Shown here one piece after another: positions 20,004 to 64,000 of a stretch of 64,000 nt of DNA. Origin of the DNA: Candidatus Helarchaeota archaeon (lineage in GTDB: Archaea; Asgardarchaeota; Lokiarchaeia; Helarchaeales; RDOG01); assembly GCA_029838215.1 (NCBI GenBank), contig JALGVI010000017.1, positions 1-64,000 of the forward strand, in the 5' to 3' direction. Each line of letters starts with the position of its first letter. Position 1 is the stretch's first letter. The translations under genes were made by a program, and so were the position numbers. The notes under the pieces are model-generated. The model ran no database searches and was not told the DNA's origin. It saw only the letters and a program-made list of their open reading frames with translations.

Positions 20004-20111
20004 TGGTGGACAGGGGGAGAATCGAACTCCCGACCTCGAGCTCTCTTCAGCATTCTTTCAAGCGGAAATGCTTCGTAAGGCTCGCATCATAACCGACTAG
20101 ACTACCTGTCC
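20004..20111 (-). tRNA. tRNA-Val(TAC) with 31-nt intron at 37/38 (20043-20073), CCA encoded
   Basis: Acceptor GGACAGG/CCTGTCC, D arm GTCTAG..GGTTATGAT, stem CGAGC/GCTCG, loop CTTACG|A after intron removal, T-loop TTCGATT. Confidence 0.9.
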
Positions 20112-30578: not shown

Positions 30579-30672
30579 TGGTAGCGGGAGTAGGATTTGA
30601 ACCTACCATCTCAGGGTTTCCCAGTTTTTACTTATGAGCCCTGCGGGATCATCCTGGCTACCCCATCCCGCT
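30579..30672 (-). tRNA. Initiator tRNA-Met(CAT) with 15-nt intron at 37/38 (30618-30632), CCA encoded
   Basis: A1:U72 pair, GGG/CCC anticodon stem, loop CTCATA|A; canonical BHB (CTCA/TGGG helix, 3-nt bulges). Confidence 0.95.
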
Positions 30673-53445: not shown

Positions 53446-54099
53446 TTAAAAGGACAGTAGTCTAAGAATGGAAAGAATAAAAAAAAGACATTGGGAACTG
53501 ATGTTAAGTATAAGAAAATAATTTTTTTTAATGAAATAAAACGAGATTTCGGGTTCATTTTGCATAAAATTATCTGTTAGAACAACATTTAAAAAAAGAA
53601 TGAGCATTATTGCAAATGATAGTCCGAGTCCAAAGTTGACAATGAATCCTTCGATTAAAATCGTGATCAAAAAGTAACTAGGTAATGGAACAACTATTTG
53701 AATGACCTGATCGAATAGAACATAACAAGTAATGCCTATAAAAATTATAGAAGCGAACTTGCATTGATATTGTGATTTGAAATGGAGATCCTTGTCTTTT
53801 TCTTGAAATGATCCCCTGATTTTCGGAATTCTTGATGTTTCGACCATCTGGGAAATCACATACACGAGGAATAGAACATTCATCGAACAAGATGTATAAA
53901 AAAAGAAAAAAACATCTGTTTTTAGAAAATTCATACCAAAAATACTCACAAAACCAATACCAGGAATCAATGAATAAATATGAAGAACTTCTACAAAATA
54001 CATAAAACATAATGTGAGGTAGAATGAAATTACAAAGATTATAACTAAGAATCTGATTTTGGTATTTCGAATGTGTGAAATGGTTATAGATTTCATCAT
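53446..54099 (-). CDS. Membrane protein (about 5 TM)
   Basis: Five hydrophobic segments; same strand as the pilin-like gene. Confidence 0.55.
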   Translation of the reverse strand: MMKSITISHIRNTKIRFLVIIFVISFYLTLCFMYFVEVLHIYSLIPGIGFVSIFGMNFLKTDVFFFFYTSCSMNVLFLVYVISQMVETSRIPKIRGSFQEKDKDLHFKSQYQCKFASIIFIGITCYVLFDQVIQIVVPLPSYFLITILIEGFIVNFGLGLSFAIMLILFLNVVLTDNFMQNEPEISFYFIKKNYFLILNISSQCLFFILSILRLLSF

Positions 54100-54266
54100 T
54101 TAGCTCCAAGATACTGGATTTTAAAACCTTACAGACTTTTTTTGAATCTCGAAAATGATTTTTTTCGTAAAAATTATAAACATATTCTATTTTTAGAATC
54201 AAGAAATAAAAATTGTACGATTATTGATAAGGCTAAAAATTAAGTGAAATCAGGTAGTAATTCATA

Positions 54267-54530
54267 ATGACATCGATGTACGAAATCATCTTGAAACCGC
54301 TAATGACAGAATCGTCATTTAATCTCATTGAAAAGGAAAATAAATTAATATTTATTGTAAAAAGGGACGCAAATAAAAAAATGATAAAATGGGCGGTTGA
54401 AAAACTTTTCAACGTAAAAGTTGAAAAAGTTAATACCTTAATACAAAAAGATGGTAAGAAAAAAGCGTACGTAAGGCTTTCTCCTGAGTATATAGCTGGT
54501 GACATTGCCACTAATTTAGGAATTTTCTAA
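54267..54530 (+). CDS. rpl23: 50S ribosomal protein L23
   Basis: P.MTE, ENKL.FIV...ANK..IK.AVE.LF.VKV.KVNTL, KKAYVRL, A..LG. Confidence 0.97.
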   Translation: MTSMYEIILKPLMTESSFNLIEKENKLIFIVKRDANKKMIKWAVEKLFNVKVEKVNTLIQKDGKKKAYVRLSPEYIAGDIATNLGIF

Positions 54531-54543
54531 GTGGGGTCATAAA

Positions 54544-55260
54544 ATGGGAAAACGAATTCGAGTTCAACGTCAGAGTTCAAAAGTCTTTAGAGCACCAACG
54601 CATAAGGCACTAAATCCTGTAAAATACGTTCCATTATCTGATAAACCCAAGTTAACTGGTGTAATTCAAGAAATAACTCATGAACCTCGGCGGGGTGCGC
54701 CTCTAGCAAAAATAAAGTATGAAAATAATATGACAAAGTATCAAATCATACCAGAATCAATTTATGTAGGGAAACAGGTCGAAGTTGGGGCAAAAGCAGA
54801 ACTCGAAATTGGAAATGTGTTACCATTAATCCGCATCCCTGAAGGAATTCCAATTTGTAACATTGAAGGTAATCCTGGAGATGGTGGAAAGTTCATTCGA
54901 TCTTCTGGGTGCTATGGGACGATTCAATCTCGTTCACGTGAAAAGGTTGTCGTGAAATTAAAATCGGGACAATTAAAATCATTTAACCCATTATGTCGGG
55001 CAACAATTGGAATCGTGGCGGGTGGTGGACGACCTGAAAAACCGTTTGTAAAAGCAGGAACAAAACATCACTTAATGCGTGCAAAAGGTCGGAGATGGCC
55101 CGTAGTTCGAGGTGTTGCAATGAATGCTTGTAGCCATCCTCACGGTGGTGGAGGACACCAACACATTGGGAAGAAAGGATCTTGTGTTTCGAGGAATGCA
55201 CCTCCTGGTCGCAAAGTGGGTCTTATTGCTGCCCGGAGGTCTGGAAAAAAGAAGAAATAA
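54544..55260 (+). CDS. rpl2: 50S ribosomal protein L2
   Basis: MGKRIRVQR, HEPRRGAPLA, GGGR.EKP.VKAG, VRGVAMN..HPHGGG.HQH, PPGRKVG.IAARR.G. Confidence 0.98.
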   Translation: MGKRIRVQRQSSKVFRAPTHKALNPVKYVPLSDKPKLTGVIQEITHEPRRGAPLAKIKYENNMTKYQIIPESIYVGKQVEVGAKAELEIGNVLPLIRIPEGIPICNIEGNPGDGGKFIRSSGCYGTIQSRSREKVVVKLKSGQLKSFNPLCRATIGIVAGGGRPEKPFVKAGTKHHLMRAKGRRWPVVRGVAMNACSHPHGGGGHQHIGKKGSCVSRNAPPGRKVGLIAARRSGKKKK

Positions 55261-55272
55261 TTCAAAGTTGTC

Positions 55273-58200
55273 TCAGGTATTTTTTAATTTTTCCGAATAT
55301 TTTTCAAAGAATTCCGTATCTTTCAAAATTTTGAAATCCTTGCAAAATTCCTCCACTTCTTCTAGAATTGGTAGGTTTTGCATATTCTTATTCGGCATTG
55401 TATGACGACTATCTACTGATGATTCCAATTGAAGATTTTTTAGATCTTCGACCTTATTCTCACAATAAACCTGAATTTTTTTCCATTCTCTATAATTAAA
55501 AGCAGAAAGTTGAATATACTTTAAATTTTCTTGCTTCAAATATTGTAAAAATTTATTTTTCAAGGAAAAAAAAGGCACGATAATCAATATACTCTTAACT
55601 TCCATTTTAACGTGTTCTTCCATTTGACGAATCTTCGTTATGAATTCTTGCTTAGACAAATCTTCTGTAATAATCAAACCATTACAGTTTCTTGATGGAA
55701 TGAAGAAATCAAATGGTTTGCAATCATCAAATTTCATAAACTTATTTTTCCTAAATTCTTCCATCATTTTTTCTCTAATTATCTTTCTGCTAACGTTTAA
55801 TTTAGGGTTTTTATAGATGATCGAAATTCTACGATCCATGTTTGATTTATAAACGGGAATTGATGTCTCAAGAAGCAGCCTATTTCGCAAAAGTTTTGCA
55901 AGTATCGAGTTGAACCTATTTATATTCATTTCAATTTGTGAAATCACGTCTCGTTTTAATACGTAACCGTTAGTCATCATATGATAAATAAAAAAATAAA
56001 GTTCCTTTTCTTCATTAGTAAAGTTTTCCAATGCTGAAAAATCTTTAAAGTTGTTGCTTTGCACGCTCAGCTTATTTTCTTTATAGTCTTTCATTTGAAA
56101 AAATTTTCTAAAATTTGAAGTATTTGATTGAAAAATTTCGTCTAGTGTAATTGGAACATTTGGTGAAAATGGAGCTCGAATTCTAAATGGAAACGGAAAA
56201 TTCAATGTGCTCATGATTGCTTCACGTTTGGGAATTGTTCTTAAGTATTTTTCTTGTTCCTCGTTTAAATTTTGATAGTTTGATACTTTATCCGTATCAT
56301 TTTTATCCGTCAATCGAAAACTTATTTTTACTGCAGAATTTGAGATGATATCACTTGAAATCTCAGGACGAGTTGCAATAGATATCATTGATTCACCGAC
56401 CCCTCTTAACAATAATGGAATATCTTCGCCTAATGACGTTTCGGATATCTCTCTCAAGATAGACGGAACTAAAAGTTGCGCGTCCTCAATTATAGTAACG
56501 TGTTTTAAATCATTTGTTACTCCTCTTCTAAGAGCTTCATCTATTGCATATTTTAGGATAATGTTCATTAATAACCTAACATCTTCTTTGGTACCTTGTT
56601 TATAAATAACGTTTGAAAGATCGAAGACAACCTTATGCTTCATTAATTCTTCAAATGGGATTGTTGTTCTATCCGTATTTAAAATCTCTCCTAGAATACC
56701 ACTTACAAATTTCGTAAAACGATTTTCTATCGCCGCAATTGTCATTACGATGGCCTTATTCTCAGATCTATTTTCCAATGAATAACTGCGTAGTTCTTCG
56801 AAAAAGGATTTAAAATCACGTTTATTCTTGTCTCTTATGCATTTTATTAGAACCTCTCTTGTAATTTTCTCCATTTGTGGGCTAAATTCTAATTTTGAAT
56901 ACGAATCTTTAGTTAAAGTGCTCTTAAATACTTCTTTTAAAATGGAAAATATTTTATTTGCATGATTTTCTGGATTAGCTCGATGTGGATCGAATAAATT
57001 GATTTTAAGTGAATTTTGTTCATCACCTAAAATGAAAACTAAGACTGGTTCCTTAATCCGCTTTATGAGGTTCCTGTAATCTCCTTTCCATTCTAGGACC
57101 ATCCAATTAATTTTAGGAAATTTATTTGTCAACTCAATTAGCATATTCTTTGTAAATTCCGTTTTGCCCATTCCAATTAAACCAGTAATGAACACGTTTA
57201 ACTTCACTTCTTCAATATCTAAAAAAGCACGAAATAACTCTTGGTTTCCATACAGAACATCTCCAATATAGATTTGTGTACTATTCGGATTATCAATTAT
57301 GGGAGGTAATTCAAAGTTGGGGATTTGAATTCTCTGAATTGTGGAAGGAAATGCTTGTTCAGGCAAGTGAAAAGTCGCTATAAGTTGTTCTGTAGTCATT
57401 TCAAGAGAATCCAGAAGTCCACGCATTAAGGCAATGGGAAGAGCTTTAAGCAATTTATAGTTCTCTATACTTAATATTTTAACAATTTGGTTGGAATCGG
57501 AAAATATATTTTTCAGTATCGCTTTAGCTTTATCAATATTCCTTTGTAATTGGACTAAATTATGAGATTTTAAGACTAAATAATTAGATACTTTCCAAAA
57601 CTGAACGAATTCCATATGCTTGATGTTAAGGAGATTTATACGAATTTCTTCCGTCGCAAGCATCTCATCAATCTGTTTACTCGAATTGTAAAATGAAGCG
57701 AAATTGTCTTGCACTTTTTGCTTGAATCTTGAGAAATCTTGACTAAAACTTGGTTTTATTGAAGAAATAAAATGACAATTGATTTTATTAGAAAGAAAAT
57801 TATTAATGAGTTGATCAATTTGTGTGAGAGTTGATTCAGCTTTTATTGCAGGAATGGAATCAAATTTTAAAATGCTAATATATAGGTCATCTATTTTTCT
57901 GTTTATTTGTATTATATTTTTTTCAACTTTCTTATATTTATAATTGCCTAACCCTAAAATCTCTTTCCATTCATATGTTAATTCATCACCTGTTAATACT
58001 CTAAATCCAATTCCATTAAAAACGGTTTTAAATGTAGTTTCGAGGAATAAAACTTTTGCCTCTAGTTCGCCGACTAACTTATCAACTGATTTTCTTCCAC
58101 TTATCATTAAAATAAATTGAATTTCGATTTTATTATTGCGAATTACAATCTCATATGATAATTGAGGAATTTGTCGTGCAATATTGACCAAATGGTAAAA

Positions 58201-58815
58201 AAGATAATTTGTATTTCCCATTTTAAGTAAGCGGTCAACGATCCTAGGAATTTCGCGTTCCTCTCTCATGGAAATATTCTTAGGAATTTCTGTTATTTTG
58301 ATAATTGCTAAAACTTTTTTATGACCATTTTTTCCTCTGAATATTAGTGCACATTCCCCGACTTCAGTATCTTTTACGGAAAAACGATATTTTGCCACAT
58401 CAAGAAGAGAAATAATAAGGGTAATCTCAACAACAATAACAATGAACGATATACAAAATGAAATAGGGTTGAACATTTCATAGATACTGAATAAACTTAA
58501 TAGTAAAGACATTACAATCGTGCTGAATATAATGGATATAGTAATATTCACGATTTCATCTTTTGAAAGAAAGGAAAGACCGAGGAATCCAAGTAAGAAA
58601 AGAATTGTACCGTAATTACTAAAGTAAATAAAAAAGACAGGATTCTGAATAATTGGCACTCCTCTTATTACGTAAATTATGTAAATATTGAAAATTAAGT
58701 CAATTAATTTTGGTACTGAAGTATTGAAATAAACATTAAAAATAAAAACAAATAGGGTGTTAAAGAAAGTAATTCCAAAAAGGAATAAACAGCTACCTAA
58801 CAAAATATGAACCAA
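55273..58815 (-). CDS. Membrane-anchored VirB4/HerA (DUF87-like) ATPase with C-terminal winged-helix region
   Basis: Four to five N-terminal TM segments; Walker A GLIGMGKT; Walker B IIEDAQ; LRGVGESM..ATRP..S..I.SN..KI.FRL; LNEEQ..YL..IP..EA. Confidence 0.8.
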   Translation of the reverse strand: MVHILLGSCLFLFGITFFNTLFVFIFNVYFNTSVPKLIDLIFNIYIIYVIRGVPIIQNPVFFIYFSNYGTILFLLGFLGLSFLSKDEIVNITISIIFSTIVMSLLLSLFSIYEMFNPISFCISFIVIVVEITLIISLLDVAKYRFSVKDTEVGECALIFRGKNGHKKVLAIIKITEIPKNISMREEREIPRIVDRLLKMGNTNYLFYHLVNIARQIPQLSYEIVIRNNKIEIQFILMISGRKSVDKLVGELEAKVLFLETTFKTVFNGIGFRVLTGDELTYEWKEILGLGNYKYKKVEKNIIQINRKIDDLYISILKFDSIPAIKAESTLTQIDQLINNFLSNKINCHFISSIKPSFSQDFSRFKQKVQDNFASFYNSSKQIDEMLATEEIRINLLNIKHMEFVQFWKVSNYLVLKSHNLVQLQRNIDKAKAILKNIFSDSNQIVKILSIENYKLLKALPIALMRGLLDSLEMTTEQLIATFHLPEQAFPSTIQRIQIPNFELPPIIDNPNSTQIYIGDVLYGNQELFRAFLDIEEVKLNVFITGLIGMGKTEFTKNMLIELTNKFPKINWMVLEWKGDYRNLIKRIKEPVLVFILGDEQNSLKINLFDPHRANPENHANKIFSILKEVFKSTLTKDSYSKLEFSPQMEKITREVLIKCIRDKNKRDFKSFFEELRSYSLENRSENKAIVMTIAAIENRFTKFVSGILGEILNTDRTTIPFEELMKHKVVFDLSNVIYKQGTKEDVRLLMNIILKYAIDEALRRGVTNDLKHVTIIEDAQLLVPSILREISETSLGEDIPLLLRGVGESMISIATRPEISSDIISNSAVKISFRLTDKNDTDKVSNYQNLNEEQEKYLRTIPKREAIMSTLNFPFPFRIRAPFSPNVPITLDEIFQSNTSNFRKFFQMKDYKENKLSVQSNNFKDFSALENFTNEEKELYFFIYHMMTNGYVLKRDVISQIEMNINRFNSILAKLLRNRLLLETSIPVYKSNMDRRISIIYKNPKLNVSRKIIREKMMEEFRKNKFMKFDDCKPFDFFIPSRNCNGLIITEDLSKQEFITKIRQMEEHVKMEVKSILIIVPFFSLKNKFLQYLKQENLKYIQLSAFNYREWKKIQVYCENKVEDLKNLQLESSVDSRHTMPNKNMQNLPILEEVEEFCKDFKILKDTEFFEKYSEKLKNT

Positions 58816-59159
58816 TAGAGTATGTTCTCTTGAAATTTGCTTTTTTTTTTAATATATCTGAAAAATAGCCCCCCTAAGATTAATGACTCGCCAAGTATTG
58901 CAAATATGAATAAGAGATTTATTTGTTCAATCAACGAATTTAGTATAAATAAGAAATTTATTAGTCCATATAACGAAGGAAACTCTAAAATAAAGTCTGG
59001 AAAGAGGTTGAATTCACTCAGATATATGTTTGCTAGAATGAAACAGGTGATAGTTATGACTATAATTGCTAAACAAGAGAAAACTCTCTCAAGCTCTCTT
59101 GGTCTTGGAGTTTTTACTGGTATTATTTCCTGTTTCACGTATACTTCCTTGTCAACCAT
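58797..59159 (-). CDS. Small membrane protein (2-3 TM)
   Basis: Hydrophobic segments; overlaps the ATPase start. Confidence 0.6.
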   Translation of the reverse strand: MVDKEVYVKQEIIPVKTPRPRELERVFSCLAIIVITITCFILANIYLSEFNLFPDFILEFPSLYGLINFLFILNSLIEQINLLFIFAILGESLILGGLFFRYIKKKSKFQENILYWFIFC

Positions 59160-59234
59160 TTTTATCAGTATTTACTTTTATTGGTCTAAAAGTTTTACGT
59201 TTTGTTTTATATTTTAACTCCACAAAAGAAGAAA

Positions 59235-61106
59235 TCACTTCATTTTCATTTTTTGTAAATTCTTCGCAAGTCTTTTTCTTTTGAAAAGAATAGCTGAGAA
59301 ACATCCAATCAATAACGTTGAGATCGTTAAACCCATGTTTGACATTAAAAACTCCATGAAACCATTTGTAATGAGAATCACGTAATTATATTCTTCAGCA
59401 AGATATGTTCCGTTTCCAAAATAGACGAATTTAATATGGATTGGATTTAACGATTCGGGAATCAATAAGGAAAAAATTAGCTCTCCATTTTCATTTGATA
59501 TCAACGTACTATGATATTTTCCATTCAGATAAACATTTACTTCTTCATTTCCTAAAAAAACACCATTTTTAGTCTGAAAACTAAATTTCAGGATTTTATT
59601 CTTAAGAATATGCCCTAGCAATGTAACTTGAGGAATTATTTCAATGGGAGTGAGTTCTAAATCCCAAAACTCATCATCATATATCTTACCGTTTATTCGA
59701 TATTGTAATAGAACTTCATTTGAGATTGTTTGAGGAAGTGACCAAGAAAAATTTGCCCATCCATCCATAGAATAGACTTCTTTTACTTTTTTCCATTCTG
59801 TATTTTCCCAAAAAAATAATTCAATACATTCACCATCTAATATTTCTCGAGATGAATGTGCATCTTTAAAAAAAAATGAAAAATCCATAATTCGACTTTC
59901 AGGATTTTTATGAACTAAAACATGACAGGATAATGGCCTTGGTTTAATTTGAATGGGAACAATTTTTGTTAAATTACTACCTTGCTCAAATGGAATTGCT
60001 TCCAAAATGAGATCATGTATCCCGCTTTCATTCAAGGATTGAAATACTATTTGATGATTCAAGTGATTAGATGTATCTAAAAAACCAAAATCAGAATTGA
60101 ATAGATATGACACGTTTGAGAGAAATTCTGTTTGCACCTGAATGTTTATTTGTGGATGTTCGTAAGAAACAACTGGAAAAATGTTGCTTGCATTTAAGAT
60201 AGAAACGAAAAATGAATTATTTATATCAAGCACCTCGAATTGTAAATTTAAGTTTAATGGGTTATAATCTATCGTTTCAATATTATTTAATATTGCCCGA
60301 TACATTCCAGATTTTCCACTATCCGTATCTAAAGTAAGATTCAAGATTCCTTCTGAATTTGTAGAAACATTTTCGTTTGATATTAAAACGAAATCAGGAT
60401 CGAATAATTGACAATTTATTAATTGATTGCGAAATTTAAATGTAGAATTATGCTCATTATAGAATTGGATCGAAATCTTTGTTTTATTTCCTTGAAATAT
60501 TATTGAAGGGTATTGATCTAGGATTTGGTAAGCGAGATCTGCCTTGAATATTCTTATTCCATTGACCGATTTTAACGTAACACCTTCTATAGCTCCTGTT
60601 CCTTCTGGATCGATCTCTATTTCTATATTTGCAACAGCTCTAACATCTGATTGCGTAACTGGATCATAACTTTCAGGATCTAAAAAGATCACTTTTGAGA
60701 TTTCGAAATTCTCTCTTGGATGCGGTAAAAAATGATCATCAAAATAAAAATTCTCAAGATCTAACGAGTTGCGGATCACCTCATATTGTGATGAAACATT
60801 TAATACATAAGTTGTTGAAATTCTTATTGATTCACCTATTTCATAATACCCTGCCCCATACATATCAACTGTATAAATTGAGATATTCTTCCATTCTTCT
60901 TCATCTGTTATTTGAATTATCTTTGGTAACTGGAACTGAGAACTTACTTGTATATTAGTTACAAAAATTGAAATCGCGAAAACAAATATTAGAATCACAC
61001 TCAAAAAAAGCACGAATATCGTGATGCTGGTCCTAGAATGAACGTGTTTCATGACTTTTAATTTCAATGGAATATGATATAAACAACACGACCCTATTTT
61101 GCGCAA
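59235..61106 (-). CDS. Surface glycoprotein with N- and C-terminal TM segments and beta-rich ectodomain
   Basis: N-terminal TM, C-terminal TM plus KRKR; 12 N-x-S/T sequons counted. Confidence 0.75.
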   Translation of the reverse strand: MRKIGSCCLYHIPLKLKVMKHVHSRTSITIFVLFLSVILIFVFAISIFVTNIQVSSQFQLPKIIQITDEEEWKNISIYTVDMYGAGYYEIGESIRISTTYVLNVSSQYEVIRNSLDLENFYFDDHFLPHPRENFEISKVIFLDPESYDPVTQSDVRAVANIEIEIDPEGTGAIEGVTLKSVNGIRIFKADLAYQILDQYPSIIFQGNKTKISIQFYNEHNSTFKFRNQLINCQLFDPDFVLISNENVSTNSEGILNLTLDTDSGKSGMYRAILNNIETIDYNPLNLNLQFEVLDINNSFFVSILNASNIFPVVSYEHPQINIQVQTEFLSNVSYLFNSDFGFLDTSNHLNHQIVFQSLNESGIHDLILEAIPFEQGSNLTKIVPIQIKPRPLSCHVLVHKNPESRIMDFSFFFKDAHSSREILDGECIELFFWENTEWKKVKEVYSMDGWANFSWSLPQTISNEVLLQYRINGKIYDDEFWDLELTPIEIIPQVTLLGHILKNKILKFSFQTKNGVFLGNEEVNVYLNGKYHSTLISNENGELIFSLLIPESLNPIHIKFVYFGNGTYLAEEYNYVILITNGFMEFLMSNMGLTISTLLIGCFSAILFKRKRLAKNLQKMKMK

Positions 61107-61223
61107 AATCGTGTTTTATTTCTTACTTTTTTTTAATTATGGTCTTTACATTTAAAACGGTAGTTAGTTATAATAATCAAAAAATAAAATTTTTTTAAAA
61201 AAGCTCACGCAAGTTGAGATTGG

Positions 61224-63398
61224 ATGACAAGAATTAAGCAAATTGACAAAATCCTCAGTCTTATCAATCAAAAGGATAGAATAAGAAATGTTGGAATCGT
61301 TGCGCATATCGACCACGGAAAAACCACGCTTGCAGATTGCCTACTTGCTCGGACAGGACTAATATCTCCATCTCTAGCTGGTCAACTTCGTGCATTGGAT
61401 TACTTAGATGAAGAACAGCGGAGAGGAATAACAATGAAATCGGCAAACGTTTCTTTGGTTTACAATGATTTCTTAATAAACTTGGTTGATACTCCAGGTC
61501 ATTAGAATTCATCTTATGAATTGAATTCTGACCAAGTGGATTTATCTCCCAAGGTTTCTCGCGCGCTTAGATCTATCGATGGTGCCATTGTAGTCGTGGA
61601 TGCCGTAGAAGGCTGCCAAATTCAAACCGAAATTGTATTAAAGCAAGTATTGAAAGAATTGGTTCAACCTACTTTGTACATTAATAAAGTAGATCGACTT
61701 ATTAAAGAATTAAAATTGGATCCTGACCAAATTCAAGCCCGTTTTCAAAAAATAATCGATGAATTTAATGACTTGATTGAGAATTACTCTGATTTCCAAT
61801 TTCAGAAAGAATGGCAGATTCAACTTGAAAAGGGAAATGTAGTTTTTGGATGTGCAATTTTCCCAAATTGGGGAATTTCTTATCGAAAAATGCTCCAAAC
61901 TGGGTTGAAATTCAAAAATATATATGATAGCTATCATTCTTCTGATCAACTAAACGCTTTGGGTCAGCTTCATGACCTGATTCCATTGAGTGATTCCATT
62001 TTTGATATGATTATTAATTTACTCCCGAATCCCATTAAGGCTCAAGGATATAGAATACATGGAATTTGGAAAGAGTCATCCAATCTTGAAATGAATGAGT
62101 TTCTTAATAAATGCGAAGAGAAAGGTCCAACAATTTTATGCATAAATAAGGTAATGACGGACAAACATGGTGGTTTTACTTGTATTTGTAGGGTCTTTTC
62201 TGGTGAGATCTTTCGAGGGATGCGTCTGTATGCAATGAATTTAAAAAAATTTATCCAAATTCGGGATCTTTATATTTTTATGGGAGAACAACGAGCAAGA
62301 GTTGAGCGAATTCCTTGTGGAAACATAGTAGCTTTTAAAACAATGACAGCAATTAATGCTGGAGAGACGCTGGTTCAAGAGGGATATGAAAATAATTCTG
62401 GATTCTTTGAAATGTTTCATTATATCTCTGAACCTATTCTCACAATTGCTCTAGAACCCAAACAACCAAGCCAATTGGAAAAAATGCTAGATTTTCTCAA
62501 TGTCATGTCGTTGAATGATCCAAGTCTAAGAGTTACCGTTAACAGGGATACTGGAGAATATCTTATTTCTGGATTAGGAGAACTTCACTTGGATATCCTT
62601 TTAAAAGAAATTGAGAAACAGGGAATAAATGTGATTCCCTCTCGCCCATTAGTCGTATTTCGGGAAAGTATAACTCACTCGGTTTCACCTATATCCAGTA
62701 GTACAAAGGATGGATTAACTGAAATCGAGATTTCGATTGATCCTTTAAGTAATGATGAAATTAATCTTATAAATCAAGGTAAATTATATCAGAGTGGGAA
62801 AGTATTTCATATTGAATCTCATCTAAATCTAATCCTTGATGAAACGGAAAAAAGCATTCAAGATCCTGTTATTCAAAGAATTTTAAGAAAAGGATTTGAT
62901 AAGATATTAAAAACAGGACCACTTTGTGATCAACCCGTAAGAGGATTGAAAATAAAAATTCATGCTCTAAAGATCCAAAAGAAACAAGTCTTGTCTTCGC
63001 CTTTGGAAATTCAATTGTTGCTACGAAATGTGATTTTTGCATCAATCTTAACAGGAACACCCATTTTATTAGAACCTATTTCAAAACTAATCATTCAGCT
63101 TCCTCTAAATCTGATAAAGGCCGTGGAAACTCTTGTTGCTCAAAAAAAAGGGAAGATCTTGTCAATTGAACAGATCGGAAATTCATCATCAATTACGTGC
63201 ATCATCCCTATAAAGAATTCATTAGAATTAACTGGTGAATTAAGATCAAAATCATCAGGACAAGCATTTTGGCAAGTCTTTTTCTCACATTGGCAGGAAA
63301 TTGAATCATCCGAGGCCCGAATGATTATAAAAACAATAAGGATGAAAAATGGTCGAATTCCAGAGGTACCAACACCTGATTTTTTCCTAAATAAATAA
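61224..63398 (+). CDS. Archaeal EF-2 paralog (aEF-2p); join(61224..61502,61536..63398), 713 aa after splicing
   Basis: [18 protein letters not shown]|VD, NKVD, GLGELHL, LLEP, ELR.K.SG.A; domain IV lacks the diphthamide His (HRG region reads VLSS). Confidence 0.9.
61503..61535 (+). other. 33-nt bulge-helix-bulge (archaeal endonuclease-type) intron in an mRNA
   Basis: Outer helix TCCA/TGGA, central 4-bp helix GGTC/GACC, 3-nt bulges ATT and AAG, inner 8-bp helix AGAATTCA/TGAATTCT. Begins with in-frame TAG; excision restores DTPGHVD. Confidence 0.88.
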
Positions 63399-63569
63399 CA
63401 TTTTTTAAAGGTTAAAACAAGAAGAACTTGTTTTTCCAATTTTTGGAAACAATTCTGTGCTTCACATAAGAATAAATCAATGCCACGAGATGGATGATAT
63501 ATAATCGTTTTATAGGACGATTTCAAGGACTAACGAATTTTTTATCTTGAAAAGGAACCAATTTCGATT

Positions 63570-63646
63570 GCAGCTGTGGTATAGTTTGGTTAGAACCGGA
63601 GGTTCCCATCCTCCTGACCCGGATTCAAATTCCGGCAGCTGCACCA
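63570..63646 (+). tRNA. tRNA-Gly(CCC), CCA encoded
   Basis: Acceptor GCAGCTG/CAGCTGC, anticodon arm GGAGG-TTCCCAT-CCTCC, T-loop TTCAAAT. Confidence 0.94.
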
Positions 63647-63660
63647 CTTCTCTTTCATAT

Positions 63661-63999
63661 TTAAATCAAGAATTCTTGTAGCTTCGTATCTAGCTTTTTA
63701 ATGATCCGCTTATAATATCGAATTTCAATAGGAATTAAGTTTATAAGAAATAGTCGATTTTGACGTGTCTTGACATCATTTAACAAGTGTACATGGATGA
63801 GAATTCTATCTATTGTTATCGCAAGATCGTTGATAAAACTGATATCCATGATTTCGTTTTTAAAGAGAAAAGAAGCCAATACTGCTACTATGGATTCAAT
63901 ATCTATGGCTCCTCGAAAATTAATATTATTATTTTTTGTTGCCAAAACAATTAATCCTTCATCCGAACAAATAAAAGTCCCTAAAAAACCAACTTTTTT
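63661..63999 (-). CDS. Roadblock/LC7-like protein, 5' end beyond the window
   Basis: Frame stays open to the window edge: ...GTFICSDEGLIVLA...DIESIVAVLA... roadblock pattern. Confidence 0.55.
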   Translation of the reverse strand, partial: KKVGFLGTFICSDEGLIVLATKNNNINFRGAIDIESIVAVLASFLFKNEIMDISFINDLAITIDRILIHVHLLNDVKTRQNRLFLINLIPIEIRYYKRIIKKLDTKLQEFLI

Positions 64000-64000
64000 A

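Follow-up and report, generated by a model that had tools for sequence, protein, structure and literature searches.

A probable tRNA-type intron in the G3 motif of the elongation factor 2 paralog aEF-2p of Helarchaeota

The DNA analysed here (hereafter the window) comprises the first 64,000 nucleotides (nt), read on the forward strand, of contig JALGVI010000017.1 in the Candidatus Helarchaeota genome assembly GCA_029838215.1, and near its end lies a gene for aEF-2p, a paralog of the archaeal translation elongation factor 2 (aEF-2). The gene appears as two open reading frames (ORFs), 61224-61505 and 61521-63398, which share one frame and are separated by a TAG-containing insert in the G3 motif of the GTPase domain. 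The first piece, exon 1, covers positions 2-79 of the GTP_EFTU profile of Pfam (E 9e-26) and is 57-65% identical to the N-termini of orthologs; the GTP_EFTU match of exon 2 starts at profile position 83 and is followed by EF-G domains II, III, IV, and C. Removal of 61503-61535 joins CAT to GTG and produces a single ORF of 713 codons, which reads ...LVDTPGH|VDLSP... across the junction. An earlier note on this DNA, made from the sequence alone, had taken the two ORFs for one gene with a product of 713 amino acids (aa) and had described the unspliced product as a 93-aa stub. The shared frame, the deletion, and the contiguous Pfam coordinates agree with the former claim, and the TAG, coming after 93 codons, with the latter. 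In our reading, 61224-63398 is very probably a single aEF-2p gene whose G3 motif is interrupted by a 33-nt bulge-helix-bulge (BHB) intron, spliced by EndA and RtcB.

The predicted intron and its exon flanks (Table 1) can form a complete hBHBh' motif, with an outer helix (h), a central 4-bp helix (H) between two 3-nt bulges, and an inner helix (h'). The intron itself is made up of the third base of the 5' bulge, the inner hairpin, the 3' strand of the central helix, and the first two bases of the 3' bulge. The strands of the inner helix are AGAATTCA (61504-11) and TGAATTCT (61522-29), and the outer helix can be extended by GATA (61488-91) pairing with TATC (61543-46). Every coordinate that had first been proposed for the motif holds on re-reading, and for 61480-61555 the centroid computed by ViennaRNA coincides exactly with the canonical hBHBh'; the minimum free energy structure, of equal energy, has one extra pair and a 5' bulge moved by one base. 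This segment folds with -26.1 kcal/mol against a mean of -14.9 for shuffled sequences (z = -3.6), none of 200 shuffles being as stable. The strict hBHBh' definition is satisfied at 573 sites on both strands of the 3.6-Mb genome (about 8e-5 per position), and among those that fuse two ORFs the intron of the window ranks first in the whole genome.

Table 1. Predicted exons, intron, and BHB elements of the aEF-2p gene (window coordinates)
Feature	Position	Strand	Remarks
Exon 1 of aEF-2p	61224..61502	+	93 codons: G1, G2 RGIT, G3 up to DTPGH
BHB intron (predicted), 33 nt	61503..61535	+	In-frame TAG immediately after the His codon
Exon 2 of aEF-2p	61536..63398	+	620 codons and stop; remaining G domain, EF-G domains II, III, IV, C
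Outer helix h, 5' strand TCCA	61493..61496	+	Thr-Pro codons; pairs with 61537-61540; ViennaRNA fold
Outer helix h, 3' strand TGGA	61537..61540	+	Within Val-Asp codons GTG GAT
Central 4-bp helix H, 5' exonic strand GGTC	61497..61500	+	Pairs with 61530-61533
Central helix H, 3' intronic strand GACC	61530..61533	+	
5' 3-nt bulge ATT	61501..61503	+	Predicted cut after 61502; unpaired in centroid and consensus structures
3' 3-nt bulge AAG	61534..61536	+	Predicted cut after 61535
Intron hairpin h'	61504..61529	+	8-bp inner helix 61504-11/61522-29, 10-nt loop 61512-21

The same site is occupied in relatives. Public proteins were queried with the 93-aa stub, and many stubs end right after DTPGH; the intron-bearing sequences number 12, namely the window gene, genome G001, and ten metagenomic Helarchaeota contigs obtained from such stubs (L079-L084, L085, and L092-L094). 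The 11 further sequences have inserts of 28-33 nt at the identical nucleotide position, and in them, too, the frame is restored when both bulges are cut past their second base. Because 10 of the 12 insert lengths are not multiples of 3, read-through cannot rescue the corresponding genes. G001, the sole additional genome of the family, has a frameshifting insert of 31 nt between CCAGGTCAT and GTGGATTTA; the central helix there is GGUC/GACU, and the inner helix (UAUAAAAAUA/UAUUUUUAUA) bears no resemblance to that of the window. At the predicted junction, all 23 intronless orthologs examined among 41 related genomes read DTPGH[LV]DF unbroken, and an intron in this region is absent from most orthologs of the class (well over 100 genomes).

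When the 12 sequences are folded de novo with RNAalifold, the consensus consists of a 4-bp outer helix, a 4-bp H, two 3-nt bulges, and an 8-bp inner helix. In this structure 95.3% of the cells are paired, 27 cells are compensatory, and 8 of the 16 pairs show compensatory double changes. In the inner helix, compensatory changes affect 7 of the 8 pairs, and UCCA/UGGA, the outer helix, does not vary among the 12 genes. None of 500 shuffles reached the observed percentage of pairing, number of compensatory cells, or covariation score (6/500 and 3/500 did so for the other two measures), and pairing falls to 28-53% of cells when the partners are slid by 1-3 columns. The central helix, one strand of which is exonic, also covaries: in L082 the exon has GGC for GGU, a synonymous change, and the intron compensates with GGC for GAC (giving GGCC/GGCU), and G.U variants of this helix are found in other relatives. 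The earlier note had proposed that an insert at the same position, with covarying stems, be sought across Asgard aEF-2p genes, and this is what the 11 further sequences contain. The flanking codons ACT CCA GGT CAT|GTG GAT are near-frozen in the 12 genes, as Thr, Pro, and Val are invariant, and His and Asp vary once each; intronless orthologs have free third-position variation in the Thr, Pro, and Gly codons. This comparison shows that selection acts on the BHB geometry itself.

Once spliced in silico, the coding sequences of the five full-length genes have 703-725 codons and a terminal stop only. Among them, the proportion of synonymous differences (pS) is 0.61-0.83, which is largely saturated, against 0.22-0.38 for nonsynonymous ones (pN). 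By these figures, the genes as predicted after splicing are undamaged and purifying selection maintains them. In conclusion, same-site inserts, covariation, and intact ORFs under selection exclude, for practical purposes, an assembly artefact, a pseudogene, and read-through. Upstream of the gene synteny is conserved: a protein of 560-620 aa without Pfam match is encoded on the opposite strand in the window (59235-61106), in L082, and in L085; in the latter two (L082:55-2299 and L085:140-2534) it is preceded by a gene for a small Arf/Ras-like GTPase. The intron is single-copy, since no further copies were found in the genome by blastn-short beyond chance matches of 11-15 nt.

The spliced protein has the five-domain architecture of EF-2 (GTP_EFTU, D2, EFG_III, EFG_IV, and EFG_C in Pfam) and intact G1, G2, G3, and G4 motifs, NKVD being visible in the alignment. 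The tip of domain IV is without the diphthamide His loop, where the aligned canonical aEF-2 of the same order has VVHEDPTHTRAGQ, and the domain IV loops HxDxxHRG and SPHKHN are not conserved, no such motif being present. A second and canonical EF-2 homolog is encoded on contigs C59 and C107 of the genome, split by a contig break, and canonical copies are present in all relatives. Judged by the names that its closest public homologs bear, the organism belongs to Helarchaeota/Helarchaeales. The gene thus shares with the aEF-2p of Narrowe et al. 2018 (PMC6143161) the five EF-2 domains, the G motifs, the nonconserved domain IV loops, and a coexisting canonical aEF-2, and on these features it matches aEF-2p as defined there. 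The accessible text of PMC6143161 describes no introns in the aEF-2p gene, and the Helarchaeota copies differ from the proteins of that work in standing in public annotation as N-terminally truncated. The two pieces of the canonical gene (G000:C59:1842-2729 and G000:C107:2080-3362, G000 being the genome of the window) lie at contig ends with the middle of the gene unassembled, and its G1-G3 region is uninterrupted. In another genome of the order (G002:C140:11854-14028, L038), the aEF-2p match has one TGA inside, with 723 aa in the open frame and 725 codons in the match; probably the search simply ran on past the gene's own stop codon.

The enzymes that such an intron would need are encoded in the genome. 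Two EndA-family proteins are found, each with N and C domains. The one at C168:14184-14756 is alpha-like: its best match in the PDB is the catalytic alpha subunit of Aeropyrum pernix (3p1z_B, E 5e-48), and it also matches 3ajv_B, 2cv8, and 2zyz_B, which are catalytic alpha subunits of crenarchaeal heterotetramers. The second, at C1:87093-87752, is a divergent paralog, whose matches include the structural subunits 3p1z_A, 3ajv_A, and 2zyz_A. RtcB is encoded at C13:28973-30277. Asgard EndA has been reported as an (alpha-beta)2 enzyme with an L1 loop that confers broad specificity (PMC5829648), and the title of a reference cited in that work links archaeal pre-mRNA splicing to hetero-oligomeric EndA. 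That the splicing machinery is to be expected in this cell, as had been argued from two tRNAs of the window said to carry BHB introns, is therefore borne out by the two EndA genes and RtcB. The tRNA part of the argument stands less completely. Relative to the 71-position Rfam model two tRNAs are indeed over-length (105 nt at 20007-20111 and 91 nt at 30582-30672, both on the minus strand), which is compatible with introns, but a strict BHB scanner finds no canonical BHB in either, and ARAGORN reports neither. By eye, the first is a Val-UAC tRNA interrupted at 37/38 by an intron of 31 nt, whose BHB contains a single A.G mismatch in its 4-bp helix; the second has a CAU anticodon and an intron of about 15 nt.

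The earlier note had also suggested scanning the genome for BHB motifs in coding sequences. Such a scan places the window intron first, but it does not discriminate for other candidates. With a loose BHB motif and ORF fusion, 654 fusions are obtained in G000 against 608-656 with shifted splice sites; a relaxed motif gives 1112 against 1104-1155. Structure and ORF fusion alone are thus not discriminating, the counts being close to those of the shifted controls. Only when strict motif quality is combined with ORF fusion do 25 sites stand against 13-19 in the controls, and by eye the other top strict candidates looked like noncoding frames or frames of neighbouring genes.

Inserts of the same type are found at three other positions of Asgard aEF-2p genes. 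At the G1 site, GHIDHGK|TT, inserts of 30-32 nt are present in all four genomes of genus g8 (L018, L020, L021, and L036, locus about 1247-1300) and in 1 of 54 genomes of genus g7 (L078, on the minus strand of G092:C13). Here H is ACGG/CUGU or AUGG/CCAU, so that an exonic synonymous site covaries with the intron, and the outer helix has only 0-2 bp, which corresponds to the relaxed HBh' form. At EQ|KRG, just before G2, L085 has an insert of 40 nt (counted; 2790-2840) and L093 one of about 41 nt (by eye; 620-680), with H GAAC/GUUC, AAA in both bulges, and an inner helix of 10 bp in L085. These two genes have both the EQ|KRG and the G3 introns, hence two per gene, separated by a middle exon of about 30 codons; G001 is without the EQ|KRG intron. 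At RRG|IT, in switch I, inserts of 30-31 nt are found in L086 (2780-2830, with H GAGG/CCUC) and L087 (2790-2840), and about ten public stubs (among P0053-P0078, labelled Promethearchaeota, Hermodarchaeota, or "elongation factor 2") terminate here. All the proteins carrying introns at these other sites lack the diphthamide loop, and those with the RRG|IT intron are thus aEF-2p-like. The four sites are all in or beside G motifs, and it may be that codons have to be invariant if they are to provide the exon half of a BHB over the long term.

These data suggest the following sequence of events. In the pre-mRNA, the exon codons ACU CCA GGU CAU and GUG GAU would fold with the intron into a canonical hBHBh', the outer helix being wholly exonic and the central helix exonic in its 5' strand. 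An EndA of the heteromeric (alpha-beta)2 type would cut each bulge between its second and third bases, at 61502/61503 and 61535/61536, and RtcB would join the exons into ...CCAGGUCAU|GUGGAUUUA... with release of a 33-mer that is probably circular. We infer these cut positions because the EndA rule and the exact restoration of the reading frame agree on them; ligation by RtcB and splicing in vivo are likewise predictions. The 713-aa GTPase would be encoded by the spliced mRNA only, the unspliced one stopping at the TAG after 93 codons. The intron would go back to a single gain in the ancestor of the aEF-2p clade of Helarchaeota, with retention ever since.

A few points weigh against this reading. 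The homologous motifs are imperfect: the first inner pair is mismatched in L082-L084, the 5' bulge of L080 has 2-3 nt, and L084 has one mismatch in H. A 5-bp central register, GGUCA/UGACC, is nearly isoenergetic and was favoured by RNAalifold when eight sequences were used; as this register would not restore the frame, correct splicing depends on EndA choosing the 4-bp one. The 5-bp register was rejected on the grounds that its cut sites break the frame and that the 12-sequence consensus has the 4-bp register. Finally, the case is known from genome sequences, a look for RNA sequencing runs with 54001-64000 of the window having listed none.

The competing explanations differ in what they make of the stop. 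If the insert were a disabling mutation or a misassembly, an in-frame stop would be no surprise in a metagenome-assembled genome of 170 contigs (94% complete, 6% contamination). One would then hardly expect the same-site insert in 12 independent assemblies from different samples, nor frames that are otherwise intact, with 703-725 codons, and under purifying selection, and the chance of this explanation is negligible. Translational recoding, either read-through of the stop or ribosomal bypassing over the hairpin as in T4 gene 60, is scarcely more credible than that. The stop does come right after a potential take-off codon and is followed by a stable hairpin. Yet read-through would add 11 residues to switch II and is impossible for the 10 frameshifting inserts, and bypassing finds no CAY landing codon before GTG in the window or in G001 and leaves the conserved 3-nt bulges and 4-bp helix unexplained. 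The stub of 93 aa and the remainder of 620 aa could also be translated separately and assemble noncovalently, the hairpin being incidental, a terminator, or a processing site. Public annotation has two genes here and there is a TTG at 61521, but the break would fall inside the G3/switch II motif DTPGH|VD and the frame of exon 2 has no conserved start or ribosome-binding site. Moreover, the inserts of relatives vary in length and phase and the BHB rule nevertheless always gives the exact junction, covariation keeps the 3-nt bulges and the 4-bp spacing and not merely a hairpin, and the exon flanks are frozen at synonymous sites. We consider such a split gene highly unlikely.

A different question is whether a BHB intron, once accepted, is removed conditionally. 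The earlier note had interpreted the locus as a BHB intron in an aEF-2 paralog that gates its expression, coupled to tRNA-splicing capacity in the manner of HAC1/XBP1. The 12 sequences, the covariation, the frameshifting lengths, and the machinery bear out the intron; the gating is not required, since constitutive splicing of a long-retained intron explains the pattern equally well. Removal dependent on tRNA-splicing or RtcB capacity, or on stress, would fit an unspliced mRNA that stops directly after the His codon and an intron kept over a divergence that saturates synonymous sites, and the presence of introns at four sites in aEF-2p of several Asgard lineages could hint at a use. However, the sequence gives no means of telling regulated splicing from constitutive; like the motifs in the tRNAs of this genome, the one in aEF-2p is an ordinary EndA substrate, and HAC1/XBP1 is cleaved by Ire1 at twin 7-nt loops and not by the tRNA endonuclease. 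Most orthologs of the class (well over 100 genomes) are intronless in this region, from which it follows that the intron is dispensable for aEF-2p function, and the EQ|KRG intron, absent from G001 and present in L085, looks like neutral gain and loss. Regulated gating therefore seems improbable to us, and splicing is most likely constitutive. With its four sites, aEF-2p can be seen as a hotspot of tRNA-type introns in Asgard archaea; that their removal serves as a switch, by which EndA/RtcB capacity sets the amount of this ribosome-associated GTPase, is equally doubtful.

The intron in the pre-mRNA of cbf5 has been known since 2002 in Crenarchaeota (Desulfurococcales and Sulfolobales; Watanabe 2002, Yoshinari 2006, and Yokobori 2009, the last being PMC2738675). 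With it the aEF-2p intron shares a BHB-like fold built from exon and intron, predicted cutting by EndA, hosts with a hetero-oligomeric endonuclease, a lineage-specific distribution (one gain and later losses), and misannotation of the gene. It differs in the host gene, an EF-2 paralog; in the phylum, Asgard/Helarchaeota; in the four sites occupied across lineages of the family, with up to two introns per gene; and in that its splicing is predicted from gene sequences, with no experiment as yet. The cbf5 gene of the Helarchaeota genome (G000:C106:65656-66600) is one uninterrupted frame of 341 aa with no stop. Hence, the aEF-2p intron is predicted to work like the cbf5 intron without being a member of that intron lineage.

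The BHB introns of archaeal tRNAs and rRNAs are reportedly the subject of work by Marck and Grosjean in 2003. The aEF-2p intron has in common with them the arrangement of 3-nt bulge, 4-bp helix, and 3-nt bulge with h and h' and the same predicted enzymes, and its size is within the range of the tRNA introns of this genome. In contrast with them, its substrate is an mRNA, conserved codons take the place of a tRNA stem in the exon half, and splicing has to leave a continuous reading frame. The splicing of HAC1/XBP1 by Ire1 and tRNA ligase or RtcB is similar in that a short mRNA intron is removed independently of the spliceosome, by an endonuclease and then a tRNA-type ligase, and that without splicing a truncated or different product results. 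It has, however, twin stem-loops where a BHB is found here and Ire1 in place of EndA, and it is regulated by stress. The literature searched yielded no description of BHB introns in Asgard protein-coding or EF-2 family genes, only work on tRNAs and rRNAs and the papers on cbf5. An October 2026 preprint on Asgard introns covers tRNAs only (bioRxiv 10.64898/2026.10.13.758758), and a 2026 review of non-canonical splicing makes no mention, in the parts searched, of archaeal mRNA introns. The claim that the case had not been described before thus holds, within the literature searched, for this gene and phylum but not for the mechanism (cbf5, PMC2738675), which is of a known kind in a new gene and phylum.

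The introns have led to a systematic misannotation of Helarchaeota aEF-2p. The nine nearest public proteins (42-100% identity), Helarchaeota copies included, all have 609-620 aa, that is, they are cut at G3, and are filed as truncated "GTP-binding proteins"; none of the nine is a spliced full-length version, and full-length forms appear only at 40% identity or less. In the gene calls of L079, L080, L092, and L093 (GCA_054799095.1, SRR31155650, GCA_013375355.1, and GCA_054384095.1), the aEF-2p gene is represented by two or three separate "genes", among them stubs of 70-105 aa, a piece of 30 aa, and a "GTP-binding protein" or "elongation factor EF-2" of 609-620 aa. The estimated number of archaeal "pseudogenes" and split genes that are in truth spliced genes would have to be revised accordingly.

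For two decades, endonuclease-dependent splicing of archaeal pre-mRNA has rested on one gene, crenarchaeal cbf5. The aEF-2p case is comparatively well supported, by 12 sequences, covariation, and compensation between exon and intron, and it would offer a clean substrate for studying the specificity of Asgard EndA. Its host gene is a paralog of a translation factor and its host lineage, Asgard, is the nearest to eukaryotes. If a switch by splicing capacity did exist, the prokaryotes most closely related to eukaryotes would have an archaeal counterpart to the RtcB-dependent control of XBP1/HAC1. In evolutionary terms, the intron bears on the use of non-spliceosomal mRNA splicing and of RtcB-type ligation before eukaryotes.

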